A DNA stretch of 64,000 nt from Spirochaetia bacterium (GCA_963675665.1 OY776510.1:1344001-1408000); one strand, 5' to 3'; positions 11,506-62,772 are shown, counted from the stretch's first letter. Notes: generated by a model not told the origin, from the sequence alone. Translations and numbers: made by a program.

Positions 11506-12735
11506 ATGGATAAAACGCAACGGCTATCGCTAAAACAGAACAACAGAAAAATCGTCCTGGATATGTTCAGGAAAGCTTCCGTTCTCTCCGTTGCTGATGT
11601 CAGCATAAAAACAGGCATCAGCAAACCGACGATACAGAAAGTAATAAATCATTTTATGGAATCAGGATTTATTATTCCTGAAGGTAAAGGGAGTTCCACC
11701 GATGAAGGAGGAAAAAAGCCTCTTCTGTACAGTTTTAACAGGTTGTATGGTTACGTGATTGCTATTCACGTCGGTCCGGATTTTTTGTATTCCGCAATAA
11801 TAGATATGAAATCTGAGATTCTTCACAGCGATTTTCAACAGCTCGGCGATATCGGTATTGAAGAAGTGACCCGGATGTGCGCCGAAGTAATAACGAACTA
11901 TTCTGAAGATGAAAAAGTTTCCGCCGGCAGATTAATTTCTGTTACTATTGCATTGCCCGGTGTTGTAGATCCGGCAACCGGATGTCTTGTGGTTACTCCC
12001 CACTTTCACAACTGGGGGAATAATTTCCCTTTTGTTTCAGAACTGAAAAAACTTGTTTCGTTATCCGTACCTGTTCAATGCGACAATATTAACAGATACC
12101 AGGCTTTTGCTGAAATGAAAGCCGGCAAGGCAATCGGCAAAAGAAATTTCATGATAATTGATGCAATGGAAGAAGGTTTGGGAAGCGGGATAGTAGTTAA
12201 CGGAGAGCTCAAACACGGGGCCCAGAATTTCTCCGGTGAAGTTGGCCATATGTTGCTGATGCCTATCAGCGGTCCGAAATGTATCTGCGGCGGCAAGGGT
12301 TGTTTTGAGGCCCTTGTAAGTTTGAAAAGAATTGGAGCGTTGATAGAAGAAGGCCGTAAACGGCATAAGGATTCATTAATTTTTGGAGATGAGAATAAAA
12401 ACACTCTTCTCGAGCGGCTTTTCAATGCGTTTGAAAATGAAGATGAGTTTGCCGCGGTCATCATGGATGAAATAGCGTTCTGGTTTGCTTCAGGCATTAA
12501 TAATGTTGTTTTGATAAATGATCCTGAGTTGATCATACTTGAGGGAATATACAATGTTGTCGGAGACAGATTTATAGAGCTTGTTAAATATCATCTTGAC
12601 AGGGTTGCCTATCCCGGAATAAAGCGCTCGGTTCAGATAGAATTTTCTGCCTTTGGTCCGGAGCGGGGCATTCTTGGGGCCGGAACATATGCGATCTGGT
12701 TATTCTTTAATCAGCCTGAATTCTATTCGGATTGA
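11506..12735 (+). CDS. ROK family transcriptional repressor
   Basis: N-terminal HTH (TGISKPTI, GGKKP), GLGSGIV, GEVGH, CICGGKGCFE. Confidence 0.92.
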   Translation: MDKTQRLSLKQNNRKIVLDMFRKASVLSVADVSIKTGISKPTIQKVINHFMESGFIIPEGKGSSTDEGGKKPLLYSFNRLYGYVIAIHVGPDFLYSAIIDMKSEILHSDFQQLGDIGIEEVTRMCAEVITNYSEDEKVSAGRLISVTIALPGVVDPATGCLVVTPHFHNWGNNFPFVSELKKLVSLSVPVQCDNINRYQAFAEMKAGKAIGKRNFMIIDAMEEGLGSGIVVNGELKHGAQNFSGEVGHMLLMPISGPKCICGGKGCFEALVSLKRIGALIEEGRKRHKDSLIFGDENKNTLLERLFNAFENEDEFAAVIMDEIAFWFASGINNVVLINDPELIILEGIYNVVGDRFIELVKYHLDRVAYPGIKRSVQIEFSAFGPERGILGAGTYAIWLFFNQPEFYSD

Positions 12736-47553: not shown

Positions 47554-48636
47554 TTATAGTTTAACAGGGCCTCCCGACTCGGCAGAACTATAGAGCCCGT
47601 CAACAATCTTCATAAGTATGCATGCCTGTTCCGGCGTATTAAACGGTTTTTCTTCACCCTTGGCGGCCATAATAAAATTGGCAGCGTTTCGTACTCTGCC
47701 CATCGTCGAATCCGGTTCGGTAACAATCTTTCGATTAACAGGCAGTCCGTTTTCATGGGTATATAATTCGCATATATCAATTGATGTATTATCAATACCG
47801 TCTTCCTGAAACTGCCGTTCAACAAGGCCTCCGGCTTTATCTCCCTGAAATGTAACATGGCATTTCTCATTTTTGTTCATTTCCGCCCACGAGCTTCTTA
47901 AAAAAAGAACCTGACCGCTTTTAAACTTAACAAAAGCATGGCTTGCGGTTTCCACATTATTTATACCTTTCTCATTGTCCGGAATTCCCCAGGGCCCTTT
48001 AAAGGTTTTATCTGATGAGAAATCAGAAAATGTAGCGGCAAGTATATATTCAGGTTCCGGAAAATCCATGAAGGAAAGGGCCAGATCCGCCATATGCAGA
48101 AGATCAATTACCGGCCCCCCGCCGGATAGTTCTTTATTTGTAAACCAGCTTCCGAATCCCGGAATCCCCGTCCTTCGTGTCCATTCAGCCTGCGCCGAGT
48201 TTATTCTGCCGACGGTGCCGTCCTTTATATATTTGGACATGGCAATTGAATCGGAACGTGCCCGGTTGTTGAAGTTGAACATAAGAATTTTGTCCGCTTT
48301 TTCCGCCGCGTTTTTCATTTGAACCGTCTCTTTATAGTTCAGGGCGGGAGGTTTCTCGCAGAAAACATGAAGTCCGGCGTTCAGGGCTTTTATGGCATAC
48401 TCTTTATGGTATTTATTCGGGGTTATGATTGTTACGGCATCAAGATCTTTTTCCCTGCTCAGCATTTCGTCGACATCTGTGTAGACTGAAGCAATTCCAT
48501 ATTTTTCAGCAAGGGTTTGTGCTGATGCTTTTGTTCTGGAGGTAACTGCAATAATCTTTGCGCCCGCCTGCAGAAATCCCCTGATATGAAAGTCGGCCAT
48601 GCCGCCGGCACCGATAATTCCTGTTTTAACTGACAT
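47554..48636 (-). CDS. Gfo/Idh/MocA oxidoreductase
   Basis: GIIGAGGMA, TPN, CEKPP, RRTGIPGFGSWFT, GGGPVIDL; start ATG 48636 behind GGAGGA. Confidence 0.9.
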   Translation of the reverse strand: MSVKTGIIGAGGMADFHIRGFLQAGAKIIAVTSRTKASAQTLAEKYGIASVYTDVDEMLSREKDLDAVTIITPNKYHKEYAIKALNAGLHVFCEKPPALNYKETVQMKNAAEKADKILMFNFNNRARSDSIAMSKYIKDGTVGRINSAQAEWTRRTGIPGFGSWFTNKELSGGGPVIDLLHMADLALSFMDFPEPEYILAATFSDFSSDKTFKGPWGIPDNEKGINNVETASHAFVKFKSGQVLFLRSSWAEMNKNEKCHVTFQGDKAGGLVERQFQEDGIDNTSIDICELYTHENGLPVNRKIVTEPDSTMGRVRNAANFIMAAKGEEKPFNTPEQACILMKIVDGLYSSAESGGPVKL

Positions 48637-48717
48637 CGAATCCTCCGGTTGATAAATTAAGATAACTATAAGATGAAAACGGGAAGATTGCAAATAATAA
48701 AAAACGATAATAAACGA

Positions 48718-48733
48718 TAGCAAACGCTTGCTA
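48718..48733. promoter_or_regulatory. LacI-type operator between divergent genes
   Basis: TAGCAAACGCTTGCTA near-palindrome with central CG. Confidence 0.5.
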
Positions 48734-48805
48734 AATGAGAACAAACAGTTGTATAATACCTTATCCGGCTTTGTAAAAGCATTATTTTTTATTCAGGAGT
48801 TTGAT

Positions 48806-50335
48806 ATGGCGGTTAAGCTGATAGGAATTGATATAGGAACACAGGGGACAAAGGCTGCTCTTTTCAGTGAAGAAGGCGTAACTTTGGGCGAGGCTTTTCA
48901 GAAATCAAACCTTTTTCAGCCGGAACCCGGCGTGGTGGAGGAAGATCCCGAAGAACAGCTTGATGCCGTATGCAATACAATCAGAGAGCTGGTCAATAAA
49001 ACTTCAACCGATCCTTCCGAAATCGCCTGTATTGCAATAGACGGGCAGATGGCCGGGGTAATCGGCGTAGGTGAGGACGGCCTGAATGTAACTCCCTACG
49101 ATTCCTGGCTTGATACCCGTTGCGCCCCCTATATCAAGCAGCTGAAAGCTGAAGCCGCAGAAGATATACTTAATAAAACCGGCTGTGCTCCCAGCTTTAA
49201 CCACGGTCCGAAAAAGATCTGGTGGAAAAAAGAACGCCCCGAAATTTATAAAAAAATTAAAGCCTTTGTTCAGCCGGGAGGCTACGCAGCCATGCGGTTA
49301 TGCGGGCTTAGCGGAGATAAAGCTTTTATAGATGTTACCTATCTGCATTTCTCGGGTTTTGCGGATAACCGGAATTCAAAATGGGATGAAGATTTATGCA
49401 GACGTTTCGGGGTAGACATCGCAAAGCTTCCGAGAATTCTTCGTCCTGAAGAAATAGTAGGCAAGCTTGTCCCCGAAATGGCAACACGCACCGGACTTAA
49501 GGCAGGTACTCCGATTGCCGCAGGATGCGGTGATACTGCAGCAAGTTTTCTGTCCTGTGGAGCTGCAACCGAGGGTGTTTGTGTAGATGTTGCCGGAACT
49601 GCAAGCGTATATGCTTCAACAACCGCCGAATTCCAGGCTGACAGGAAACTCGTTCTCGGGTGCGGACAGTCGGCGGTTCCCGGAATGTGGCACCCGTATG
49701 CCTATATAAACGGCGGCGGAATGAACCTTGAATGGTTCAGAAAGGACATTGGAATGATGCTTCATCCTGATCAGGCTGCTGCGCACATCGAACTTGATTT
49801 CGGCAAACTGAATGAACTTGCCTCCGCTGTAGACCCCCGTGTAGACGACCCCCTGTTTGTTCCGCACCTGGCAGGACGGAACTCTCCTGCACAGCCGGAT
49901 CTTCGCGGGGCCTGGGCAGGACTTAACTGGAACCACAATGCCGGACACCTGTTTCGGGCCGTCTGTGAGGGCGTAGCGCTCGAATACCGGATATACCAGG
50001 AGACGACAATAGAGATGTACGACGACTTCACGCCGATGGAAATCCGGATAACCGGCGGCGGCGGCAAGAGTAGAATATGGAACCAGATTAAGGCTGATGT
50101 GCTGCAGATACCGGTTATCCCGGTTGATCGTCAGGAAGGCGCGCCGCTCGGTTCCGCTCTTGTCGCAGGCATGGCCGCCGGTGTTTTCAGCGATATAAAG
50201 ACAGCCGCTGATAAATGGATCAAAAAGGGCTCTTCAACCGAACCGTCCGCAGCTATGGCGGATCATTATAAAAACCGCGCAAAACGCTATGAATCGCTGA
50301 TGGAAGCTCTTAACGGGTGGGCCGAAGCCCTGTAG
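48806..50335 (+). CDS. FGGY carbohydrate kinase (xylulokinase-like)
   Basis: GIDIGTQGTK, DGQMAG, WLDTR, GCGD, TGGG; start ATG 48806 behind AGGAG. Confidence 0.9.
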   Translation: MAVKLIGIDIGTQGTKAALFSEEGVTLGEAFQKSNLFQPEPGVVEEDPEEQLDAVCNTIRELVNKTSTDPSEIACIAIDGQMAGVIGVGEDGLNVTPYDSWLDTRCAPYIKQLKAEAAEDILNKTGCAPSFNHGPKKIWWKKERPEIYKKIKAFVQPGGYAAMRLCGLSGDKAFIDVTYLHFSGFADNRNSKWDEDLCRRFGVDIAKLPRILRPEEIVGKLVPEMATRTGLKAGTPIAAGCGDTAASFLSCGAATEGVCVDVAGTASVYASTTAEFQADRKLVLGCGQSAVPGMWHPYAYINGGGMNLEWFRKDIGMMLHPDQAAAHIELDFGKLNELASAVDPRVDDPLFVPHLAGRNSPAQPDLRGAWAGLNWNHNAGHLFRAVCEGVALEYRIYQETTIEMYDDFTPMEIRITGGGGKSRIWNQIKADVLQIPVIPVDRQEGAPLGSALVAGMAAGVFSDIKTAADKWIKKGSSTEPSAAMADHYKNRAKRYESLMEALNGWAEAL

Positions 50336-50946: not shown

Positions 50947-52122
50947 TTGGAGTACTTAATCAACAGCCGTAATATGAAGAGACTTGACTACATTCTTGTA
51001 AAACCGGCAGGGTCCGCCTGCAATCTGGCCTGCGCCTACTGTTTTTACCATGACAATAAAGAGAGCCGCGGTATAAAAAGAATGTCGTCGTCTGTGCTTC
51101 GTGAAATGATTAAACAGTGCCTTTCCGGAAGCGGTGAGGCTTCGGCTGATGAGAATTTTGTTTTCTGCTGGCAGGGCGGCGAGCCCACGCTTGCAGGCCT
51201 TGATTTCTATAAAGAGGTTATTGAACTTCAGAAAGAATACGGAAAAGGGAAAATTATCGGAAATGCTATCCAGACTAACGGACAGCTAATCAATGAAGAC
51301 TGGGTTGCGTTCTTTAAAAAATACCGTTTTATGGTAGGTTTGTCGCTGGACGGACCGGAAGATATTCATAATGAATACAGGACTGATCGAAAAGGCAGAG
51401 GCGCCTGGTTCCGGACGGAAGCGACAGCAAGGGAGCTTCTTTCACAGGGCATAGCTGTTAACTCAATGACTGTTGTTAATAACGTAACAGCGGAACATCC
51501 AGGGTTGATTTACGGTTATCTTAAAGACCTGGGTTTCAGGTGGATGCAGTTTATGCCGTGTCTTGAAGCCGGAAATGAAGGGATCGGAAAAGACCGGTCG
51601 GACGGGGCCTGTGTTCCTGCACACTTTTCGGTAAGCCCCGACGCCTACGGCAGTTTTCTCTGTACTTTATTCGACTGCTGGACAGCTGATTTTCACGGAA
51701 GCAGGGCTGCGGTTTCGATCAGGTTGTTTGATTCCGTTGCCGCAGTTTATGCCGGGCTGCCCGCAACTCAGTGTACCAACCGGTTTGAGTGCGGCGATTA
51801 TGTTGTTGTCGAGGCTGACGGCTCAGTTTACAGCTGTGATTTTTTTGTTGAAGAAAACTGGCGGCTTGGTAATCTGACGGAAACGCCGCTTCCGAAGCTG
51901 TTGAATTCCGAAACACAGAAGCGTTTCGGCAGGCAAAAAGCCGAACTTGTTCCCGGTTGCAGTGAATGCAGATGGCTGAAATTCTGCCGCGGCGGCTGTT
52001 TAAAAGACAGGATGCGTCTCAATGCCGGAAACGGGCAGAATTATTTCTGCCCGTCATACATGACGTTTTTTGAATATGCTGACAGGCGCTTCCGGGAAAT
52101 TGCCGAATGTATAAAAGCCTGA
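50947..52122 (+). CDS. Anaerobic sulfatase maturase (radical SAM/SPASM)
   Basis: VKPAGSACNLACAYC, WQGGEP, QTNG, SLDGP, YSCD, CSECRW..CRGGC.KDR, YFC. Confidence 0.92.
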   Translation: MEYLINSRNMKRLDYILVKPAGSACNLACAYCFYHDNKESRGIKRMSSSVLREMIKQCLSGSGEASADENFVFCWQGGEPTLAGLDFYKEVIELQKEYGKGKIIGNAIQTNGQLINEDWVAFFKKYRFMVGLSLDGPEDIHNEYRTDRKGRGAWFRTEATARELLSQGIAVNSMTVVNNVTAEHPGLIYGYLKDLGFRWMQFMPCLEAGNEGIGKDRSDGACVPAHFSVSPDAYGSFLCTLFDCWTADFHGSRAAVSIRLFDSVAAVYAGLPATQCTNRFECGDYVVVEADGSVYSCDFFVEENWRLGNLTETPLPKLLNSETQKRFGRQKAELVPGCSECRWLKFCRGGCLKDRMRLNAGNGQNYFCPSYMTFFEYADRRFREIAECIKA

Positions 52123-52141
52123 AACCACAGTAAAACGTCGG

Positions 52142-53530
52142 TTACCAGGTTTCAATATAGCCGGTTTCGTTTTTTACCCTTTCAAGTTCCGATTTCAGCA
52201 TGGGAAGCAGTTTTTTACCTTCGCCCGAACCGTACAGATCGTTATATTGCTTCGGATCGTTCAGTAAATCATAAATTTCCGGTTTTCTCCGGTTATTTTG
52301 ATAGGTGATGTATATGTAACGATCGGTTCTGACGGCAGCAATTCCAGGAATCGGTATCGGAAATACCGGGTAATGTTCATAAAGCCATGCAGTGCGTGTT
52401 TTTGCGGGTTTATTCTGCAATATCGGTAATACACTGACTCCCTGCATATTCTCCGGGACCGGAAGACCGGCAAGTTCAAGCAACGTCGGGGCCAGATCAA
52501 TGTTCAGCAGCATCTGTTCTTCCCGTCTTCCGGGGTTCTCGATGATTCCGGGCCCCCAGGCAAAGAACGGTATTTTTATGGATTCTTCGTATGCGGAACG
52601 TTTGTCGTAAAGACCGTGCTCTCCGAAATAATGACCATTGTCTCCGGCATAGACGACAAGGGTGTTCCGGTCGAGCCCGCTTTGTTTGAGGCTTTCAATA
52701 ATCCGGCCGACCTGTTCGTCAACCGAAAGAACCGTCTCGCAGTACCGCTGGTAGAGAAACGGAAGCGGGGCAGGGGCCCCGACAAAGAGATGGTCCCGGG
52801 TGATCGGTACGAAAGGGTCCGCTTCTTCAGGAAGCTGCAGATCAATTCCTTCGTAAGTATCGCGAAGATGTTCGGGCGGTAGAAATCCGAAATGAACGGC
52901 CTTATGAGACAGGTAGAGACAGAACGGTTTTGAACGGTCCTTTTCTATGAATTCAAGGGCGAAGTCGGTCAAGTCTTCGGTAATGTATTTGCCCGGTCTT
53001 TCCTGTTCTGTTCCGTCTATTATAAGGGGACAGTCTTCGTAAACTCCCTGGCCGCCCTGAACAGTGAATGTAATAAAATGGTCAACCCCATCGACTTCCG
53101 GCACTCCCTCGCCGGGCATGTGCCATTTGCCTATAAAGGCTGTTTCATAACCGTTATCATGAAGTATTTCCAGAAAACTTGTGTTCTGTTCCTCGTCCCA
53201 GACGGTATGATTTGTAGTTACCCCGTGTTTATGAGGATATTCTCCGGTCAGGAAACTGGCCCTTGAAGGGCTGCACAACGATGTTGTACAGAACGAATTG
53301 GAAAACATGACGCCGTCTTCAACCAGCGCATCGAGATTGGGCGTTTCAATAAACGGGTGGTCCATACAGCTGAAAGCGTCCCACCGGTGATCGTCGGTCA
53401 GAATAAAGATAATGTTCGGCCGGGGTTTAAGGTTGTCGGATTCGGCCTGCTTTTCAGACGATTGGGCAAATGATATTGATGCAGTCGAGAAAAAAATTAT
53501 GACGCCCGTAATCAATTGTTTTATATTCAT
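52142..53530 (-). CDS. Cys-type sulfatase with signal peptide
   Basis: PNIIFILTDD, CSPSRASFLTG, GKWH, DNG, YEESIKIP. Confidence 0.93.
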   Translation of the reverse strand: MNIKQLITGVIIFFSTASISFAQSSEKQAESDNLKPRPNIIFILTDDHRWDAFSCMDHPFIETPNLDALVEDGVMFSNSFCTTSLCSPSRASFLTGEYPHKHGVTTNHTVWDEEQNTSFLEILHDNGYETAFIGKWHMPGEGVPEVDGVDHFITFTVQGGQGVYEDCPLIIDGTEQERPGKYITEDLTDFALEFIEKDRSKPFCLYLSHKAVHFGFLPPEHLRDTYEGIDLQLPEEADPFVPITRDHLFVGAPAPLPFLYQRYCETVLSVDEQVGRIIESLKQSGLDRNTLVVYAGDNGHYFGEHGLYDKRSAYEESIKIPFFAWGPGIIENPGRREEQMLLNIDLAPTLLELAGLPVPENMQGVSVLPILQNKPAKTRTAWLYEHYPVFPIPIPGIAAVRTDRYIYITYQNNRRKPEIYDLLNDPKQYNDLYGSGEGKKLLPMLKSELERVKNETGYIETW

Positions 53531-53542
53531 ATCTGGCTCCCG

Positions 53543-54109
53543 TTATCCGAATAATTTGAGGTATAGATTTAAAAATGTATAATAATAAAAGTGACCCAGC
53601 TCCCAGAAAAACAGCGTAAACAGCCCGCCCCCGATTACCAGCAGCACGGTTTCCTTTCTGAGAAGAACCTTTATGGCTTTGTCGCGGGTTTTTATTCTTT
53701 TTATTAATCTGCAGATTACCGATGCAATTCCGATCTCGAAAAATGCAAATACAACCGGCGCCAGCACGCAGTGATGAATCATGAGAAGAAGGACCTCCGG
53801 GATCGTGTAGATACCGAAAAAGGACGAAAGAATCATGAAAGATTTCAGAATCGGTGCGGCAGCCGCCAGCCAGAAAAGTCTTCTGAACAGGGTCTCTTTA
53901 TTGAAATTGAAGATGTAGATAATCAGCGGGGATATGTATGTGCAGATAATCATGCCGGCAAACCCGCCCCAGACAGCCAGATTGTTCAGAAAAGGATTCC
54001 TTATTTCAACAGAATTGTTATAAATCAGCGTGAATAATATCGTTCCTGTAACGGCGGCCGATGCCGGTATCCATAAATTTGCCGGAAATTTGTTTTTTGT
54101 TGTATTCAC
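53543..54109 (-). CDS. Uncharacterised membrane protein
   Basis: About five hydrophobic segments; tightly spaced within the operon. Confidence 0.7.
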   Translation of the reverse strand: MNTTKNKFPANLWIPASAAVTGTILFTLIYNNSVEIRNPFLNNLAVWGGFAGMIICTYISPLIIYIFNFNKETLFRRLFWLAAAAPILKSFMILSSFFGIYTIPEVLLLMIHHCVLAPVVFAFFEIGIASVICRLIKRIKTRDKAIKVLLRKETVLLVIGGGLFTLFFWELGHFYYYTFLNLYLKLFG

Positions 54110-54119
54110 ACGCTTTTCC

Positions 54120-54926
54120 TTACGGGTAAATATAACCGGGCTTCGGCGGAAGCGAATTATAAACCCGTTCTATTTTCAACCTGCCGGTTTTGCCGAAAGG
54201 AGTAAATCCAAAACCTCCGAAAGTTCCTTTAACAAGGGTGCCGACCATCTCAAGATTCAAACCGTTGACGGCAACAGCCGTATTTTTCTTAAGCCCGGCT
54301 GCACTTGAAGCGTAAGGTTTTGCAGGAATTACTATTGTCTCCGAGTCGGAAGCCTGAGCTTCGATTACAGGAAGAATATGCGGAAATTGATCGTCGCCTG
54401 TCCATGATATAAACTTGAGCGTCTGGAGCCCCTTCATGAGTTTTTCAGCCCAGGGTTTCATAACCTGGTTTCCAGTTTTTGGACCGTACAGGTTTCTGGC
54501 AAGTAAATTCAGAACCGCCCTAAAAACCACAGGTCCCATTCTGAGGTTTTCGCCTTCGGATATATCAATCAGATCGAAATAATGGACGGTATGCACCCCG
54601 AAATAGGTGTTGTAACGAAAAAGCGGTTTTTGATTGTACATATCGAATTCTTCGCCCTCATTCCGGCAGTGGGTCCAGCGGGCTGTTCCTGTCCAGAACA
54701 TCTTGTCGAGAGTCATAATCAGGAACCCGACATTTGGCCGGGTCTTCACATGTTCCTTGCTTAAACCTTCGGTAAACTGACCCATTACCAGCTGCTGCGG
54801 AGCAGAGGCCTGCAGGCTGGAAAGCATGGTTATATGCGGAGCGCCGTTGTCGTCGATTGTTGCCAGAAGCCCCACCTTGTATGTTGATTGAAACCGCTCA
54901 ATCATGTCGTCCGTCATTTTCTTCAT
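54120..54926 (-). CDS. Pyridoxamine 5'-phosphate oxidase-like (flavin split-barrel) protein with two tandem domains
   Basis: LLATIDDNGAPHIT and a second copy FISWTGDDQFPHIL. Confidence 0.7.
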   Translation of the reverse strand: MKKMTDDMIERFQSTYKVGLLATIDDNGAPHITMLSSLQASAPQQLVMGQFTEGLSKEHVKTRPNVGFLIMTLDKMFWTGTARWTHCRNEGEEFDMYNQKPLFRYNTYFGVHTVHYFDLIDISEGENLRMGPVVFRAVLNLLARNLYGPKTGNQVMKPWAEKLMKGLQTLKFISWTGDDQFPHILPVIEAQASDSETIVIPAKPYASSAAGLKKNTAVAVNGLNLEMVGTLVKGTFGGFGFTPFGKTGRLKIERVYNSLPPKPGYIYP

Positions 54927-54946
54927 GTCGTTCCTCCTTTCTTTTT

Positions 54947-55924
54947 CTACGCAGTCATTCCGGTTGCATATACCCGGTTTTCCGGCAGACCCGCCGAGAG
55001 CGCAATCTTGCGCAGGATGTTCATTTTGCCGGCAGTCTGAAGTTCTGCATCTTTATATTTCCAGTCCTTTCCGAACCGGCTGTACTTGGCCGTGCACAGG
55101 TTGTTGAAAGCGCACATTTCCCATCGTTCAACCGCAGGGCCCAGTTCGGAACGTATAAATTCCGCAATTGCCCAGATGTTTTCATCGGAATCGGTCGCGC
55201 CGGGAATTACCGGGGTTCTTATCCACAGACGGTGCTGTTCAGGATATGTGCGGATGCAGGATGCCAGGCGCTTTATATTCTCAAGAATCAGGCTGTTGTC
55301 CGCCCCCGTATGCTTTTTATGCTCGGCCGGATCGATGATTTTAATGTCGTAAAGGAATAGGTCCGTGTAAGGCAGAACAGCTTCAAACGCCGTCCACGGG
55401 CACAGCCCGCAGGTATCGACTGCCGTGCCGATGCCTTCTTTTTTCAGCAGGCGAAGCACGGCGGCCGTGAACTCAGGCTGAAACAGCGCCTCACCGCCTG
55501 AAATCGTGACGCCCCCTTCCTTGCCGAAGAATGCCCTGTCTTTAATCAGTTCAGCCGTCAAAGTCTCGCTGGTATAACGATTGCCTTTAGTCTGCATTGC
55601 CAGGGCCGGGCAGTTGGTACAGCATTCAAGGCATCCATTGCATCGTTCCAGATTCCTGACAATCCCGTCCGGTCCCATACTTAAGGCGCCGGCGCCGCAG
55701 TTGTTAATGCACTCGCCGCAGCCCATACAGCGGTCCGGGAAATATTCGATCTCAATATCAGGCGATATGCTTTCGGGATTGTGACACCATTCGCAGCGCA
55801 GCGGGCAGCCCTTTAGAAAAGCGGTCGTGCGCAGCCCGGGTCCGTCTTCGGTCGACATCCGCTGGATATCCAGGACCAGACCTTCACCGGCCGATTTGCT
55901 GCTGTTTTCGAGGTTAATATTCAA
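54947..55924 (-). CDS. Glycyl-radical enzyme activating protein (radical SAM with ferredoxin insert)
   Basis: DGPGLRTT.FLKGCPLRCEWCHNPES, two CxxCxxC motifs, GGVTISGGE, VDTCG. Confidence 0.95.
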   Translation of the reverse strand: MNINLENSSKSAGEGLVLDIQRMSTEDGPGLRTTAFLKGCPLRCEWCHNPESISPDIEIEYFPDRCMGCGECINNCGAGALSMGPDGIVRNLERCNGCLECCTNCPALAMQTKGNRYTSETLTAELIKDRAFFGKEGGVTISGGEALFQPEFTAAVLRLLKKEGIGTAVDTCGLCPWTAFEAVLPYTDLFLYDIKIIDPAEHKKHTGADNSLILENIKRLASCIRTYPEQHRLWIRTPVIPGATDSDENIWAIAEFIRSELGPAVERWEMCAFNNLCTAKYSRFGKDWKYKDAELQTAGKMNILRKIALSAGLPENRVYATGMTA

Positions 55925-55925
55925 G

Positions 55926-58439
55926 TTACATCTCCCTGTGGCTTTCGCGTGCTATTATCTCGTCCTGCAGTTCACGGCCGATTGAGCTGAAGTAGGCGTT
56001 GTAGCCGGTTACTCTTACAAGCAGGTTCGGAAAATCTTTCGGGTGCTTTTGGGCTTCCTTAAGCATTTCAGCGTCAAGCAGGTTGACCTGAAGGGCTGTT
56101 CCGCCGTTTTCGGTGTAGCCGCGCAAAAAGGCCTTGAATTTTTCCTTAGCCGCCGGGTTTCTCAGCAGCGAGGTATTGAAAGTTATAGTATGGCTTGCGC
56201 CGTTCGGAAGGCTGTTGAGGTATCCGGCAAAATCACCGCCTTCGCCGACGGCCTTCCCTCCCAGCGCCTTGCCGACCGAGTTGCTGTTTGCAGTAGGCCC
56301 GTTGATGTCGGCGCCGTTGCTCGGGCAGATTGCGTTGGAAAGGAACTGTCCCTTTTTCCGGCCGTCGGGGCTGGCAGGCAGAATAAACCCGTCGCCCACC
56401 CAGTAGTTCCAGCTGAGCATGCCGGGGCGGTAGATTGCGTTTGTAGCGGTGGTCCGGTATTTCCATACCTCAGACGTCCAGTTGTCCATTACGGCAAGCG
56501 CAAGCGCGTCGGCATCGTCATCGTCGCGCCCGTATTTCGGGGCCTGGTTTTTCGCGCGGGCCTGCAGCACTTCATGACCTTCCCAGTTGTCCCTGAGCGC
56601 TTCGGCAAGCTGCTCAAGAGAGCAGATTTTTTGATCATAAACAAGATATTTCACTGCAAGCAGGGAATCGACTGTTGTCGCATAGGTTACTGCTTCAATT
56701 GTAACGAAATTAAGTTCAGCGCCGCCCCGTGTTACATCGGTCGCCTTGTCCGCGCAGCCTTTCACCAGCAGCGACAGGTAAGGCGTCGGGCTGAAATCGG
56801 CCCTCAGGGTCTCACTTTTTTCATAGACATCGACCATTTTCTTTATTATATAGCGGGTCTGGACAACATACGCGTTCCAGAACTTGTCCCAGCTGTCAAG
56901 ATCGGAAAGCGCTCCGGTTTCAGGCCCGTCCTGTTTAATCTTTTCTGATTTGCCAGTCATTTCATCTGTATGCGGAAGCAGATCGCGCCCGTTGCCGAAG
57001 ACCAGCTCAACAGCTTTTAAAAGATTAAGATTGCAGTTTACGGTATTTGACCGGTCGTTGCCGACCATGGTGTTCTCAAGACATCCTACTGACGCATAGT
57101 CAAAAACGTTGTCTTCGTTAATAAAATTCTGAACGCCCGCCTCTTCCGCTTCGCGCAACATTCCCGCCATGGAACGTTCGTCGAAATTAAGCAGAAACGG
57201 GGCCCCCTGGCTGCTTAATATCATGTCCGTGACCCTGTCCAGCAGTTCTTCCGGGGAATTCCGGTGCAGCCTGACGTTCGGTTTAGGTTCGAGAATGGGG
57301 CTCATTTCGTCTATAACTTCTAGAAGCAGCCATGTTGTATCGTTAGTCATGTCTACCCCGTTCTTTCCCATTCCCGACAGGTTAAAAAGCTGTCCGAACC
57401 CCGCGGTGATTCCCTGGTTTGCGCCGACCCTGATTTGAGCGTCGTAAACTGTATTGCAGTGGAACCAGAAACAGCCGAGGATCTCTTTCATGAAATCACG
57501 ATCAACACCCGCGCTGATGGAATTCCGGTAATAGGGATCAAGAATCTGATCAAGACGGCCGAACGACAGCCCCGGACCGGGATAGTTTTCATCCGACATT
57601 ATCAGCATATGGGTCATCCAAAGCGACTGAACCGCCTCATGAAATGTTTCGGCGCCCTGCCACGGTACCTTTTCCGAGATCCTTGCCATCTCAAGCAGTT
57701 CCGCCCGTCGGGTTTCGTCCTTTTCAAGCGCAGCTTCTTTCCTGCAGAGCCATGAATACCTCGCCGCCACTTCCTTCGGAATAGTGCATGCTGTTTTCAT
57801 TGCGTTAAGCTGGGCCCCCTTTTCTCCGTCGCGGTCCTTTCGGCTCAGTTTCATAATTTTATTTTCAAGTTCGGCATAAAGCGAGCTGAATCCGTTCTTG
57901 AGGATGGGTGCGTAATCAGGTATCAGGTGTCCGCTGGTTGCCCCTGCATTGCCGTACCCGTGATTGTGAAACCAGATGAGGGCGGACCTTGCGCCGTTTT
58001 TGCCGTACATTTGTTTATCCCGCTGTTTAGCCTCGGATTTTGTCCAGCAGCCGGAAGTAAACAGGTTGAAATTCGAGCCGCATAAAAGGTCCCCGGGAAG
58101 AATGATCTTTTGCATGTGTTTGACCATTACTTCTTTAAGAAAGAATGAGCGACGTTCGGCTATGGACATTTTATAAAAGCCTTTATCCATCGGTATATCC
58201 TTTGCGGCCTGGTAGACAGATGCCCGGAATGTTCCGTGAAAAGCATATGTTTCGGGGACAATAAGAAAACTGTTCTCATCGTAAACAATATCCCAGGGGG
58301 TGCCGGTTGAATAACAGGCGGATTCATTATTCCAGTTTCGTTTAACTCCCTGAAAATAATAGTCCCTGAGAAATTTTACCCTCGGCGACAGTTCTCCCGG
58401 TTCCTTGATATTGAATTTTTGCTGAGCTGATTCCGACAT
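55926..58439 (-). CDS. Glycyl radical enzyme (PFL2/eliminase-like), substrate unknown
   Basis: SFGRLDQ, Cys loop VGCLE, PKYG.D, DGR, Gly loop LLVRVTGY; start ATG 58439 behind GGAGGA. Confidence 0.93.
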   Translation of the reverse strand: MSESAQQKFNIKEPGELSPRVKFLRDYYFQGVKRNWNNESACYSTGTPWDIVYDENSFLIVPETYAFHGTFRASVYQAAKDIPMDKGFYKMSIAERRSFFLKEVMVKHMQKIILPGDLLCGSNFNLFTSGCWTKSEAKQRDKQMYGKNGARSALIWFHNHGYGNAGATSGHLIPDYAPILKNGFSSLYAELENKIMKLSRKDRDGEKGAQLNAMKTACTIPKEVAARYSWLCRKEAALEKDETRRAELLEMARISEKVPWQGAETFHEAVQSLWMTHMLIMSDENYPGPGLSFGRLDQILDPYYRNSISAGVDRDFMKEILGCFWFHCNTVYDAQIRVGANQGITAGFGQLFNLSGMGKNGVDMTNDTTWLLLEVIDEMSPILEPKPNVRLHRNSPEELLDRVTDMILSSQGAPFLLNFDERSMAGMLREAEEAGVQNFINEDNVFDYASVGCLENTMVGNDRSNTVNCNLNLLKAVELVFGNGRDLLPHTDEMTGKSEKIKQDGPETGALSDLDSWDKFWNAYVVQTRYIIKKMVDVYEKSETLRADFSPTPYLSLLVKGCADKATDVTRGGAELNFVTIEAVTYATTVDSLLAVKYLVYDQKICSLEQLAEALRDNWEGHEVLQARAKNQAPKYGRDDDDADALALAVMDNWTSEVWKYRTTATNAIYRPGMLSWNYWVGDGFILPASPDGRKKGQFLSNAICPSNGADINGPTANSNSVGKALGGKAVGEGGDFAGYLNSLPNGASHTITFNTSLLRNPAAKEKFKAFLRGYTENGGTALQVNLLDAEMLKEAQKHPKDFPNLLVRVTGYNAYFSSIGRELQDEIIARESHREM

Positions 58440-58505
58440 ATCGTATCCTCCTGTAAATACTTTTTTAAGCAAGGGTTCGCTTTTTTATTAGCTTCACCGC
58501 AGTAA

Positions 58506-59198
58506 TTATTTCATTTTGTCCTTAATAATTTTTTCTCCGTTATCAAGCAACATTTCCATGACAGCCGAACTTTCTTCTGCATTGCCGTCGATGATGGCAT
58601 TAATCAATTTTTCATGCTGGGTGTAGATCTCTGAGGGGTTTTTGATGACTGAATAAAAAGTTTCAATGAACTGCATTTGGAGGGGTTCGAATGATTTTAG
58701 AATAAGCGGGTAAAACGGATTGCCGGATGCTACTGCAACTCTGTGATGTAAGGCAAAATCGTTTGCCGCGCGTTCCGGGTCCGAGACTGTGCTTTTTTCA
58801 GTTTCGAGGATATCCTTCAATATAGAGATGTCCGATTCCTTGCGCTTTTTTGCCGCAAGGGCGGCTGTTTCCATTTCAACAAGCCTGCGGCAGTCGATCA
58901 GTCCTTCAAGCAGCCCGGTAGCCAGGCGTCCTCCGTTGTAATGCATGATTGATTCGAGGACTGCAATTGTACCTTCTGTAAGGTAATCTGTAACCACGTA
59001 GCCTTTTCGCGGACGCGTGCGTATGAATCCCATTGAAGCAAGCTGGCCGAGGCCGGAATGAATAACAGTGCGGCTCATTCCAAGTTCTTTTACAAGTTCG
59101 CGTTCAGGCGGCAGCAGTTCTCCGCATTGCAGTTCGCCGGAGATGATCCGGCGTTCAATTTCACGCATAAACTTTTCTTTCTGGCTTGGTTCGCTCAT
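58506..59198 (-). CDS. FadR-subfamily GntR regulator
   Basis: LPPEREL, SRT.. HTH; FCD domain (DFALH..ASGN, HEKL). Confidence 0.9.
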   Translation of the reverse strand: MSEPSQKEKFMREIERRIISGELQCGELLPPERELVKELGMSRTVIHSGLGQLASMGFIRTRPRKGYVVTDYLTEGTIAVLESIMHYNGGRLATGLLEGLIDCRRLVEMETAALAAKKRKESDISILKDILETEKSTVSDPERAANDFALHHRVAVASGNPFYPLILKSFEPLQMQFIETFYSVIKNPSEIYTQHEKLINAIIDGNAEESSAVMEMLLDNGEKIIKDKMK

Positions 59199-59206
59199 AA
59201 TTGCTC

Positions 59207-59223
59207 CTGTGGTACGACCACAG
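59207..59223. promoter_or_regulatory. FadR-type operator
   Basis: CTGTGGT-ACG-ACCACAG perfect inverted repeat (TGGT-N3-ACCA) next to the regulator's SD. Confidence 0.7.
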
Positions 59224-59327
59224 ATCTATTGTATTGCCGAATTCCGGATAATGCAAGGTTTTTGTATATAATTTTGTCGGGATAATTTTGTCGAGGAGTT
59301 GTTTTAATTGTGTGCGATTAAAAAATA

Positions 59328-59361
59328 AAGCCCTCTAAAATGAAGGATTTTAAAGGGCCTG
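59328..59361 (-). terminator. Probable terminator of rpiB
   Basis: GCCCT.TAAAAT / ATTTTA.AGGGC stem with an A tract on its left (U tract on the minus strand). Confidence 0.5.
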
Positions 59362-59391: not shown

Positions 59392-59829
59392 TTATGACTC
59401 CAGCGCCATTATCTTGTCGACGCGGATCTGGTGCCTGCCGCCTTCAAAAACGTTGTCAAAGAATGCATCAAGCATGTCTTCAACGCTGTCTTTATACTCA
59501 ATTCTTCCGCCGAACGCTATAAAATTGGGATTATTGTGGTTTCGGGTGGCTTTGGCTGCAAAACAGTCCTGGGGAAGCGCGCATCTGATGCCGTGAAATT
59601 TATTGGCCGAGATTGAGATTCCTATACCGGTCCCGCAGCAGAGAATTCCGTAATCGTATCCGCCGGCAAGAAATTTCGTACAGGCGTCCTTTGCAATGTC
59701 CGGGTAATCAACGGAATCTCCCGTATCTACGCCGATATTCTCACATTCGAATCCCTTTGATTCAAGGTGTTTAATAATATGTTGTTTGAGTTCCACTGCT
59801 CCGTGGTCGTTTCCAATAATGATTTTCAT
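59392..59829 (-). CDS. rpiB: Ribose-5-phosphate isomerase B
   Basis: GNDHG, VDYPD, CGTGIG, ANK, HNN, FEGGRH..R. Confidence 0.93.
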   Translation of the reverse strand: MKIIIGNDHGAVELKQHIIKHLESKGFECENIGVDTGDSVDYPDIAKDACTKFLAGGYDYGILCCGTGIGISISANKFHGIRCALPQDCFAAKATRNHNNPNFIAFGGRIEYKDSVEDMLDAFFDNVFEGGRHQIRVDKIMALES

Positions 59830-59917
59830 CTTAACTCCTGTGCTGGTTGTAACTTACCGGGTATAATTTAAAGAATTTTGCCTTTTTTGTCCATTGAAGC
59901 AGGTATATTGTTACGGT

Positions 59918-60421
59918 TTACCATTTCTCCGAATGAATACGATCCTCTCTGAAATTATTGTTGGGTTTTTTGCTTTCGGCAGGGTGTCCCAGCGCAATCA
60001 GTGAGTGGGGAATAATATGTTCAGGCAGATCAAACAGCTTTTTAAGTCCTTCTATCCGGGGTTGGCGCGGATAGACTCCTATCCAGCATGTTCCAAGGCT
60101 TTCTTCATGGGCGGCAAGAAGAATGTTCTGGACTGCGGCGGAGCAGTCGATAACAAAGTAATCGTCGGTATCGTTGAGATCGCCCATAACGAATATTACG
60201 GTATCGGCGCCTTTCATCAGCGCGCCGTTGGGACAGCATTCAATCATTTTATCAATTGTCGATTTGTCTTTTATTACCATGAAATGCCACGGCTGGGTGT
60301 TTCTTGCCGATGGCGCGTTCATCCCGGCAGTGAGAAGGGTTCTGATTGTTTCGTCGGAAACCCGGTCGTTGGTGAATTTTCGGATTGAACGTCTGGCAGC
60401 TATTGTTTCAATTGTATTCAT
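59918..60421 (-). CDS. Nitroreductase family protein
   Basis: RRSIRKF, APSARNTQPW, LGTCW. Confidence 0.92.
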   Translation of the reverse strand: MNTIETIAARRSIRKFTNDRVSDETIRTLLTAGMNAPSARNTQPWHFMVIKDKSTIDKMIECCPNGALMKGADTVIFVMGDLNDTDDYFVIDCSAAVQNILLAAHEESLGTCWIGVYPRQPRIEGLKKLFDLPEHIIPHSLIALGHPAESKKPNNNFREDRIHSEKW

Positions 60422-60522
60422 GAGCTTATTATATCATAATGTCTGTAGCGAGTGAATCCGCATAATATGACGACTTGTCTATATATTATAAAAACGGTAA
60501 GGTATAAAAAAGCGGAGGAATT

Positions 60523-61830
60523 ATGAAAAATATTTACGGGTTTGAGACAATAAGTATTCACGGAGGTTTCCAGGGGGATGCTGCAACCGGTTCAAGGGCC
60601 GTACCGGTTTACAGATCCGCTGCGTACCTGTTTCGTGATACGGATCATGCAGCCAGGCTTTTCAATCTCGAGGAAAGCGGCAATATCTACACACGTCTTG
60701 GTAATCCTACACAGGCGGTGCTAGAAGAGCGTGTTGCTGCGCTTGAGGGGGGCTCTGCGGCTGTAGCTCTCGCTTCCGGTACAAACGCCATTTTTTATGC
60801 CGTGATTAATATCTGCCGCCAGGGTGATGAAATTGCAGCTTCGAAGAACCTGTACGGCGGAACATATACAATGTTTAATGATATCCTTCCTTCATATGGA
60901 ATTAAAACCAACTTTTTTGATCTGAACGATAAAGAAAACCTGCAGGAAGCTGTTACAGACAAAACAAAGCTTGTATTCACTGAAACAATCGGAAATCCGG
61001 GACTCGATGTCGCAGACCTGAAAATGCTTACTGATACTGCGCATTCTTTCGGGATACCGCTGGTTGTCGATAATACGTTTGCAACTCCCTACCTTTGCCG
61101 GCCAATAGAGCACGGCGCCGATATAGTTGTTCATTCATTGACGAAATGGATTTGCGGTCACGGTACCGGAATCGGCGGCATTGTCGTTGATTCCGGCAGG
61201 TTTGACTGGAGCAGCGGAAAATTCCCTCTGATGACGGAGCCCGACAGCAGTTATCACGGGCTTCGTTACGCATTGGATCTCGGAGATTTAAACCCGGTCG
61301 GCTATGCCGTTCGTCTGAGACTTGTACCGTTAAGGAACCTGGGCGGGTGTATTGCTCCGGATAATGTATGGATGTTCCTGCAGGGCCTTGAAACCCTCTC
61401 ACTGCGAATGGACAGGCACAGCAGTAACGCTCTTAAAGCGGCTGAGTTTCTTCAAACGCATCCGGCTGTTTCCTGGGTAAGATATCCCGGGCTTGCTTCC
61501 GATAAATCCTTCCCGGTCGCGCAGCAGCTTCTTAAATCCCCTGCCGGGAAACCCGGTTTCGGCGGGATGGTTGTTTTCGGGATAAATGGGGGAAGAACCG
61601 CCGGCGGGAAATTTGTAAATTCGCTCAAACTTTTCAGTCATCTGGCAAATGTGGGCGATGCAAAATCGCTTGCAATCCATCCTGCCTCCACAACGCATTC
61701 ACAGCTGGACGCCGCTGCCCTGGAAGCTGCCGGGGTCGGTGAAGATCTTATAAGGCTGTCGGTCGGGATTGAATCCGAAGAGGATATTCTTGCGGATCTG
61801 GATCAGGCCCTGGCAGCCGCATCGAAATAA
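60523..61830 (+). CDS. metY: O-acetylhomoserine aminocarboxypropyltransferase (sulfhydrylase)
   Basis: [25 protein letters not shown] (PLP lysine), [16 protein letters not shown]. Confidence 0.93.
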
Positions 61831-61842
61831 AGGAGGAATGTA

Positions 61843-62772
61843 ATGCCGATAACAATACCTGAAAATCTTCCGGCTACCGGAATCCTTCAGAATGAAAATA
61901 TTTTCGTCATGAATGAAGAACGCGCGCATACGCAGGACATCAGGCCGCTCAGTATAGGAATTTTGAACCTTATGCCCACAAAGGTGGAAACCGAAACTCA
62001 GCTGTTGCGTCTGCTCGGGAATTCGCCGCTTCAGGTTGAGATAGATCTTTTAAAAACGGAAAGCTATTCTTCAAAAAACACCTCGGAGGAGCATCTGCTT
62101 GAATTTTACAAGCCGGTATCCGAGGCGTTCGGCAAATGTTACGACGGTTTTATAATTACAGGAGCCCCTGTTGAACTGATGGAATTCACTGAGGTTGATT
62201 ACTGGGACGAGCTTGCACAGGTCTTTGACTGGGCCGACGAGCATGTTTATTCGCTTCTGACGATCTGCTGGGGGGCTCAGGCCGCGTTATATCATTATTA
62301 CGGTATTCCCAAGGTGCTTATGGAACAGAAGCTTTCCGGGGTTTATGAACACAGGGTACTGGAAAGAAATAATAAACTGGTACGCGGTTTTGACGACAGG
62401 TTTTTTGTGCCGCACTCAAGACACACCACGGTAAACCGGGAAGAAATACTTCGCCGTCCGGCTCTTCGCCTCCTGGCTGAATCCAATCTTGCCGGTGTTT
62501 ATCTTACTGCAAGCGAGGATTTGAGACGGGTGTTTGTTACCGGCCACAGTGAATATGACCCGGGCACCCTTCGTTATGAATACGAACGTGACCTGTCCCG
62601 GGGTCTTGACCCGTCGGTTCCGGCGAATTATTTTCAGGGCGACAACCCGGATAACGAACCAATGGTGAGATGGCGCAGCCATGCCAACCTGCTTTTTGTG
62701 AACTGGCTCAATTATGCCGTCTACCAGGAAACGCCCTACGAAATTGATAATATCGGCTGCCGGAAACAGTAA
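61843..62772 (+). CDS. metA: Homoserine O-acyltransferase (MetA family, probably acetyltransferase)
   Basis: QDIRPL, LNLMP, TGAPVE, ICWG, PHSR, GHSEY. Confidence 0.95.

Follow-up and report, generated by a model that had tools for sequence, protein, structure and literature searches.

We analysed 64,000 nucleotides of one strand of Spirochaetia bacterium DNA (GCA_963675665.1, OY776510.1:1344001-1408000; hereafter referred to as the window), in which positions 50947–59223 hold the genes for a glycyl radical enzyme (GRE), its accessory proteins, a sulfatase and a sulfatase maturase. An uncharacterised but widespread GRE cassette is placed here under one regulator with the only sulfatase of the genome, and the same pairing arose repeatedly in other anaerobes.

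Gene organization of the locus

An earlier interpretation made from the nucleotide sequence alone (hereafter, the sequence-only reading) had described seven closely spaced genes, with that for the maturase convergent on the others; open reading frame (ORF) calls and family scans found all seven as placed. Six of them constitute a single tight operon on the minus strand. It starts with the gene for a GntR-family regulator having an FCD (FadR-type) ligand domain (58506..59198) and continues with those for the GRE (55926..58439), a GRE-activating radical S-adenosylmethionine (SAM) enzyme with a ferredoxin-like insert (54947..55924), a tandem split-barrel partner of 268 amino acids that resembles flavin mononucleotide (FMN) proteins (54120..54926), a small membrane protein of 188 amino acids (53543..54109) and a Cys-type formylglycine sulfatase that is predicted to be exported (52142..53530). 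The seventh gene, encoding an anaerobic sulfatase-maturing radical SAM/SPASM enzyme, lies on the plus strand (50947..52122) and has its own upstream intergenic region. From the regulator to the sulfatase, the gaps between the operon genes are 66, 1, 20, 10 and 12 bp, and the convergent stop codons of the sulfatase and maturase genes are 19 bp apart. Every operon gene is preceded by a ribosome-binding site, with no terminator between the genes.

The upstream boundary of the unit is marked by a terminator-like hairpin that follows rpiB (59328..59360, minus strand; 14 pairs and then a T run). Direct reading revealed a promoter-like sequence, TTGCAT-17 nt-TACAAT (59228..59256, minus strand), whose −35 element is weak and which falls below the threshold of the promoter scan. 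Between its −10 element and the ribosome-binding site of the regulator gene lies a perfect palindrome, CTGTGGT-N3-ACCACAG (59207..59223), which is a candidate GntR/FCD operator and the sole perfect copy in the window. With up to two mismatches allowed, no second copy was found in the window, for instance before the maturase gene, except for a chance-level match at 11988. The regulator matched the GntR and FCD models with 53 and 59 bits, respectively, and passed no NCBIfam equivalog; its predicted winged helix-turn-helix and FCD domains go together with a putative palindromic operator of the GT-N-AC type. Of 83 cassette loci, 40 have a palindrome with a GGT-N3-ACC core, of the type TGGTGGTAWTACCACCA, at a distance of 25–75 nt ahead of the regulator gene, an arrangement that would be consistent with autoregulation.

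Microcompartment and aldehyde dehydrogenase families, which the sequence-only reading had reported to be missing, were indeed absent among 17 ORFs examined in the region from 44 to 64 kb; the bacterial microcompartment shell genes of this genome are located about 1 Mb from the locus. rpiB and a nitroreductase-family gene flank the cassette on the same strand (window 59392-62772). Genes for a GFO/IDH/MocA oxidoreductase and an FGGY (xylulokinase-like) kinase (window 47554-50335) are found 600 bp upstream of the maturase gene, and FGGY kinases are also encoded near the cassette in two other loci (L001 and L016).

The glycyl radical enzyme cassette

The ORF of the GRE extends over 55926-58472 on the minus strand, but its likely start is the ATG at 58439, giving a protein of 837 amino acids that matches a 97%-identical relative; residues are numbered below from the TTG at 58472. 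The protein consists of a pyruvate formate-lyase (PFL)-like barrel (PF02901, 398 bits) and a C-terminal glycyl radical domain (PF01228, 67 bits) with the RVxG motif, as in the PFL-like family. The single-Cys GCLE loop and the RVTGY sequence, to which the sequence-only reading had drawn attention, are at residues 463 and 820, respectively, with Gly823 in the latter. A CxE motif on the Cys loop is taken as the mark of GRE 1,2-eliminases in the available text of PMC13450708. This motif (GCLE at residues 463–466, containing Cys464 and Glu466) and His182 are both invariant in 42 of 42 members of the family.

All the NCBIfam class equivalogs gave scores well under their cut-offs: 367 against 1100 for HypD (NF043068), 337 against 1000 for HpfG (NF048009), 335 against 1000 for HpsG (NF048011), 311 against 1050 for CutC (TIGR04394) and 411 against 678 for the generic PFL2-3 model of glycerol dehydratase (GD) and propanediol dehydratase (PD) (TIGR01774). 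The two models with a cut-off of 1000 cover the C–S lyases and dehydratases IslA, HpsG and HpfG, a group characterised by an Arg/Gln/Arg anchor for sulfonate. The best solved relatives, HypD (287 bits), CutC (286 bits) and GD (277 bits), are about 30% identical to the GRE. Their alignment to it begins only at residue 180, the N-terminal 180 residues being specific to the family.

To map individual residues, we aligned the GRE pairwise with the solved enzymes and compared the positions with the residues described in the available text of PMC13450708 and PMC7077986, from which the roles of the thiyl Cys/Glu pair and of the His residues in GRE eliminases were also taken. GD His164 and HypD His160 both correspond to His182, and the thiyl Cys and its Glu (Glu435 in GD) to Cys464 and Glu466. 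The further substrate residues of GD, which we take to be His281/Ser282 and Asp447, are replaced by Pro300/Gly301 and Val478. Likewise, HypD residues Asp278, Ser334 (Phe in GD, PD and CutC), Asp339, Phe340, Tyr450 and Thr645 are all replaced, by Pro300, Thr356, Gln361, Leu362, Asn481 and Trp688, respectively, and CutC has Asp at the position of His182. Assignments of the GRE to GD/PD, to HypD or to CutC were thus rejected, in each case on the model score and the residues taken together. In common with GD (PDB 1R8W/1R9D), PD, HypD and HpfG, it has the PFL-like fold, the RVxG motif, the GCxE thiyl loop and an activase with a ferredoxin-like insert. It differs from these enzymes, to which it is about 30% identical or less, in failing their class models, in having lost the substrate residues of GD and HypD and in belonging to a family with an obligatory tandem split-barrel partner and an FCD regulator of its own. 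Neither of these two proteins is mentioned in the available text of PMC13450708.

The family has invariant motifs of its own. In 42 of 42 members we found YPG and the Gly of residues 297–301, GI (354–355), GQL (360–362), the GC, ENT, G, DRS, TV and N481 of the loop 463–481, and R682, G684 and LSWNYW (686–691). Positions beside these motifs are nearly invariant, such as Thr356, which is conserved in 39 of the 42. Judging from these comparisons, the GRE belongs to no characterised class, nor does it keep the substrate residues of one. In this respect the proposal of a new class stands, with the qualification that the family in question is large and widespread. Its dehydratase-type motifs, combined with a distinct pocket of polar and aromatic residues, make the GRE look like a dehydratase-type 1,2-eliminase, which is its most likely activity as far as its residues can tell.

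Orthologues that are 60–68% identical to the GRE come from many phyla. Relatives with at least 44% identity accounted for 52 of the 76 loci returned by one homologue search, and the best 120 clusters of relatives (at the 90% identity level) are all at least 64% identical; the source names of the orthologues listed are generic or automatic. Of 401 genomes of the window's phylum, 56 contain the family, as do 46 of 401 from a second phylum; it also occurs in Asgard archaea, and no member was detected in the five other genomes of the window's genus. This patchy distribution suggests that the cassette spread by horizontal transfer. The genome under study itself has 10 PFL-like GRE genes (C1:166323-5050889; loci L081-L089). 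One of the products passes the PFL equivalog and five (L081-L084 and L087) only the generic PFL2-3 model; the remaining four, among them the GRE described here, pass none.

To define the cassette, we collected 123 distinct loci of the core family through the GRE alone, regardless of sulfatases, and counted partner genes within 6.5 kb, many of the misses being at contig ends. An activase gene was present near the GRE gene in 109 of the 123 loci, a split-barrel gene in 110 and an FCD regulator gene in 76. The flanks are variable and contain unrelated housekeeping genes, and no conserved transporter was seen in the neighbourhood comparisons of the cassette loci. The regulator, GRE, activase and split-barrel genes therefore form a self-contained, widely transferred and uncharacterised cassette. 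Individual loci deviate in detail. In L027 (12518-15304), genes for a rhomboid protein and two PNP_UDP phosphorylase-family proteins separate the GRE and activase genes, the split-barrel gene still following the latter. In L051 (14453-16815), a second, dissimilar PFL-like gene, which the ORF call reads in two pieces, comes after the split-barrel gene.

Both accessory proteins proved to be what the sequence-only reading had called them. The activase scored 300 bits against a cut-off of 174 for TIGR02494, which identifies GRE-activating enzymes, and has a CX3CX2C motif (CPLRCEWC at residue 40), along with two additional Cys motifs and their Fer4 domains. The 268-residue partner matched PNPOx_N (PF01243) only weakly, with 25.1 bits, which is below the gathering score of 28.1. 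Its predicted model (pLDDT, the predicted local distance difference test, of 87) consists of two split barrels, each half of which resembles small FMN-binding split-barrel proteins (Foldseek probability 1.0; template-modelling score on the target 0.67–0.76). A profile search with the partner gave 486 representatives at an E value of 0.001 or better, and among the 150 listed, the full-length ones have about 260–300 residues.

The genome has a single gene for this partner and 10 for GREs, and in six loci (L228, L229, L231, L232, L235 and L240) the split-barrel gene directly follows the GRE gene, with no activase gene detected between them or nearby. We therefore link the partner with the GRE, not with the activase, and it would serve the former as a dedicated partner. 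For the flavin-dependent follow-up step put forward in the sequence-only reading, this protein, with its fold of an FMN protein, would be the candidate. None of the papers listed joins glycyl radical enzymes with a split barrel. According to the available text of PMC12583861, the operon of limonenylsuccinate synthase, itself a GRE, includes LssP, a PNPOx-like protein to which no role is assigned. By description only, LssP and the partner are alike in being split-barrel/PNPOx-type proteins of a GRE operon. The GRE with which LssP is associated is, unlike that of the window, a fumarate-adding X-succinate synthase (same text).

The sulfatase module and its joining to the cassette

The sulfatase scored 211 bits for PF00884 and has CSPSR at residue 86, as do formylglycine (S1) sulfatases. 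Its N-terminus is hydrophobic and signal-like; this and the Cys motif agree with the signal peptide and the Cys type given in the sequence-only reading. No other PF00884 match was obtained from the genome of 5.15 Mb. The best solved relatives, a mucin-desulfating sulfatase (7P24; 267 bits) and an N-acetylglucosamine-6-sulfatase (5G2V; 255 bits), are of the S1_11 N-acetylglucosamine-6-sulfatase type. The maturase, the only copy in the genome above the family cut-off, scored 392 bits against 349 for TIGR03942 and 44 bits for SPASM and has the radical SAM motif CNLACAYC at residue 25, so that its identification as an anaerobic sulfatase-maturing enzyme (anSME) was upheld. Bacteroides-type carbohydrate sulfatases (5G2V and 7P24) and their anSME share with this pair the Cys-type CxPxR motif, the signal peptide and anaerobic maturation by a radical SAM enzyme. 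The window's sulfatase differs from them in being paired with a small membrane protein, in lying outside a polysaccharide-utilisation context and in being the sole sulfatase of its genome.

The membrane protein, modelled with a pLDDT of 86 and six predicted helices, has Glu105 and Cys133 as residues invariant among its relatives. It matched no family in Pfam or NCBIfam and only unnamed clusters in the Atlas, and its model had no Foldseek match at an E value of 0.001. To examine its association with the sulfatase, we surveyed 78 metagenome loci with sulfatase relatives of 44–70% identity. Of the 66 relatives whose flank is long enough, 36 have the membrane gene directly upstream of the sulfatase gene and another 15 have it directly downstream; it is also downstream in two further relatives whose upstream flank is too short, and among relatives with at least 60% identity it is upstream in 15 of 16. 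The maturase gene is often adjacent. Apart from genes for CrtI-like and FNR-like proteins, the neighbours of the membrane gene have no common theme and include integrase and transposase genes. The membrane protein, the sulfatase and the maturase thus form a unit of their own that normally stands alone.

The two units are joined in five or six gene orders. In the window, the cassette is followed by the membrane gene and the sulfatase gene, with the convergent maturase gene. The same order is followed by genes for aldehyde:ferredoxin oxidoreductase (AOR), SCP2 and iron-type alcohol dehydrogenase (Fe-ADH) in L098 and L136, and by genes for a CrtI-like flavoenzyme, exported by the twin-arginine translocation (Tat) route, and a YceI-like protein in L233. 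In L043, the order is regulator, maturase, GRE, activase, partner, sulfatase and membrane gene, whereas L093, L190, L196 and L197 have the membrane and sulfatase genes ahead of the regulator gene. Finally, the cassette of L032 is joined to the gene for an unrelated, cytoplasmic Cys-sulfatase that is 25% identical to the window's and has N-sulfoglucosamine sulfohydrolase as its best solved match. The sulfatase-linked loci are scattered on the GRE tree, on which the join needs at least four changes.

We then compared the adjacency with chance expectation. In the window's phylum, a PF00884 gene is located within 4 kb of the cassette in 8 genomes of 3 genera, as compared with a chance expectation of 0.90 genomes and 0.43 genera. 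The corresponding P values are about 5e-6 per genome and about 0.01 per genus, of which the latter is the fairer because genomes of close kin are not independent; 4 of the 8 genomes carry an LtaS-like transferase there, not a true sulfatase. Across 112 loci, sulfatase-fold proteins are the joint-top cluster of non-core neighbours. Other recurrent neighbours (sensor kinases, an AMP-binding ligase, HtrA and a methyl-accepting chemotaxis protein) were set aside as synteny of related genomes or promiscuous domains. In the L043 genome, the joined sulfatase is the only strong PF00884 match, the other one being an LtaS-like frame of 654 amino acids.

The join extends to the operator. In L093, L196 and L190, but not in L197, the membrane gene is immediately preceded by a site such as CTGGTCATACCACCTGCCG, which differs very little from the operator next to the regulator gene in the unrelated locus L098. 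No operator was found near the sulfatase genes of five stand-alone modules, although in one of these (L094) the searched stretch contains two GGT-N3-ACC matches at other places. The linkage is therefore neither unique to the window's genome nor confined to one arrangement, since it recurs in several gene orders with shared operators. A formylglycine sulfatase gene is near only 6 of the 123 cassettes, and no pocket residues particular to sulfatase-linked GREs were found, the window's Asn479 and Asn476 not occurring in the other linked members. These numbers and the likeness of the pockets indicate that a sulfate ester could be no more than one optional origin of the substrate and does not define the enzyme. 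The sequence-only reading had suggested that the GRE acts on the desulfated product of a sulfate ester; the recurrent join speaks for this, but only as one optional source. We conclude that the coupling of the GRE with the sulfatase is real but facultative.

Possible pathways and their weighing

We favour the interpretation, with a probability of roughly 60%, that the sulfatase is a facultative front end that frees the hydroxylated substrate of the GRE, the two modules being united in one regulated unit. Both would be co-transcribed from an operator-controlled promoter ahead of the regulator gene. Outside the cytoplasm, the sulfatase would strip sulfate from an ester of the GRE substrate or of its precursor, liberating the hydroxyl that the radical chemistry needs and enabling the organism to use the sulfated form as well. 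Inside the cell, the thiyl radical of Cys464 would abstract a hydrogen, Glu466 and His182 would handle the hydroxyl groups, and the product would be an aldehyde or a ketone. The flux would most likely run from desulfation, which takes place outside the cell, to radical 1,2-elimination in its interior. An aldehyde product would fit the AOR, SCP2 and Fe-ADH genes, which follow the cassette both with the sulfatase (L098 and L136) and without it (L249); this clue is weakened by the many AOR paralogues in such genomes, as exemplified by 16 tblastn hits in the one studied here.

The use of choline-O-sulfate, in which choline sulfatase is followed by the choline trimethylamine-lyase CutC, has the same logic: a sulfatase frees a hydroxyl for a GRE 1,2-eliminase. 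The components differ, as the GRE studied here is not CutC, according to its TIGR04394 score and the His in place of Asp, and a TIGR03417 score of 151, for a cut-off of 433, sets the sulfatase apart from choline sulfatases. The available text of the papers surveyed describes no operon that joins a GRE with a sulfatase.

Several observations weigh against a functional front end. The maturase gene has its own upstream region without a copy of the operator. The solved relatives of the sulfatase act on sulfated sugars and the other recurrent neighbours look lipid-related; no one substrate would fit all these clues. As many as 117 of the 123 cassettes have no sulfatase gene nearby, an upper bound in view of the contig ends, and cassette genes occur in only 3 of the 78 loci with sulfatase relatives. 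The pocket residues are the same in linked and unlinked GREs. Integrase or transposase genes lie beside some stand-alone sulfatase modules (L110 and L102), so that the module may be mobile and may have landed here by chance. Genes for homocysteine synthase and the MetA acetyltransferase are on the opposite strand at 60523-62772, only 1.3 kb from the cassette, and such methionine and sulfur-assimilation genes offer sulfur scavenging as an alternative reason for a sulfatase at this place.

The last four of these points, those on counts, pockets, mobility and sulfur genes, are what speaks for the strongest alternative, namely that the sulfatase module is a mobile and unrelated neighbour, self-contained for the scavenging of sulfate that would serve either as sulfur source or as electron acceptor, and was inserted beside the cassette by chance. 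A chance insertion does not readily explain at least five co-directional and tightly spaced gene orders, a maturase gene placed between the regulator and GRE genes (L043), the joining of a second, unrelated type of sulfatase (L032) or the cassette-type operators before the module where it is placed upstream. Nor does it account for an adjacency above chance expectation and for joined genes that are the sole true sulfatase gene in two genomes. With about one chance in four, we regard this alternative as unlikely.

Less probable again is that the GRE is a divergent dehydratase of glycerol or a short 1,2-diol, for which extracytoplasmic hydrolases set free glycerol or a small polyol by cleaving esterified head groups, AOR and Fe-ADH then disproportionating the aldehyde. 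One family of the window's phylum would suit it well: the regulator gene is missing there, and the gene for a transmembrane-anchored, purple-acid-phosphatase-like esterase precedes the GRE gene in 7 loci, 4 of which also have the gene for an LtaS-like enzyme with multiple transmembrane segments and an alkaline-phosphatase fold. These loci are L202 (1988-5598), L204, L205 and L215, and L211, L212 and L217. With the sulfatase, the LtaS-like and the phosphatase-like neighbours, three kinds of extracytoplasmic ester hydrolase accompany the cassette. In addition, His182 and Glu466 match GD His164 and Glu435, GD ranks in the top three of the solved enzymes matched, the lack of a conserved transporter suits a diffusible small polyol, and the Fe-ADH that follows in L098, L136 and L249 is lactaldehyde-reductase-like. 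The pocket argues otherwise, since GD His281/Ser282 and Asp447 have given way to Pro300/Gly301 and Val478, and the Phe of GD, PD and CutC to Thr356. The TIGR01774 score stays below the cut-off, the family conserves polar and aromatic motifs that are invariant among its own members, and it has an obligatory additional protein with which GD and PD dispense. Carboxylates, moreover, are the usual ligands of FCD regulators.

Three modules, the GRE cassette, the sulfatase and a CrtI-like flavoenzyme that may be accompanied by an FNR-like reductase, pair in all combinations. Genes for a CrtI-like flavoprotein and an FNR-like [2Fe-2S] reductase follow the cassette in L019, L041 and L044, and a geranylgeranyl-reductase-like gene does so in L041, L044, L015 and L017. 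A CrtI-like gene follows the sulfatase gene in L233 and, with an FNR-like partner, precedes the GRE gene of a sister clade in L254. The pair also lies before the stand-alone sulfatase modules L094 and L095, and the FNR-like gene alone does so in L090 and L127. In L233 (13551-18112), the CrtI-like flavin adenine dinucleotide enzyme, which has a twin-arginine lipoprotein signal, is encoded directly after the Tat-exported sulfatase, and a YceI-like protein, of the polyisoprenoid-binding family, is encoded three genes beyond it. Lipid-binding or isoprenoid-type proteins (SCP2, YceI and geranylgeranyl-reductase-like) thus recur nearby. Two further CrtI-like and FNR-like pairs are present in the window's genome (C1:357577-360326 and 2547573-2550312).

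These neighbours raise the possibility, which we rate marginally below the diol dehydratase, that the cassette supplies the cytoplasmic steps at the core of a modular anaerobic pathway acting on an ester-capped amphiphile with vicinal hydroxyls, possibly an isoprenoid- or lipid-anchored polyol or a glycerol-ether head group, sulfated or phosphorylated. Exported enzymes would uncap and trim it, the GRE would cleave the C–O bond beside the freed hydroxyl, and AOR and alcohol dehydrogenase would take the aldehyde. We keep this as a minor case because the counts are small and the type of the sulfatase points to sugars. Direct radical elimination of sulfate by the GRE was rejected, since the sulfatase would then be redundant.

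Whole clades of GREs are still without an assigned function, according to the available text of a 2026 review (PMC13450708). The family described here is among the more widespread of those lacking one, being found in 11–14% of the sampled genomes of two phyla and in Asgard archaea, and it had offered no clue to its substrate, since neither transporter nor pathway genes travel with the cassette. Its coupling to exported sulfatases, which recurs and is co-regulated, and in other lineages that to phosphoesterase-type enzymes, provide the first hint at that substrate and a concrete, testable entry point. The membrane protein and the sulfatase, for their part, would define a new two-gene sulfatase unit in anaerobes.

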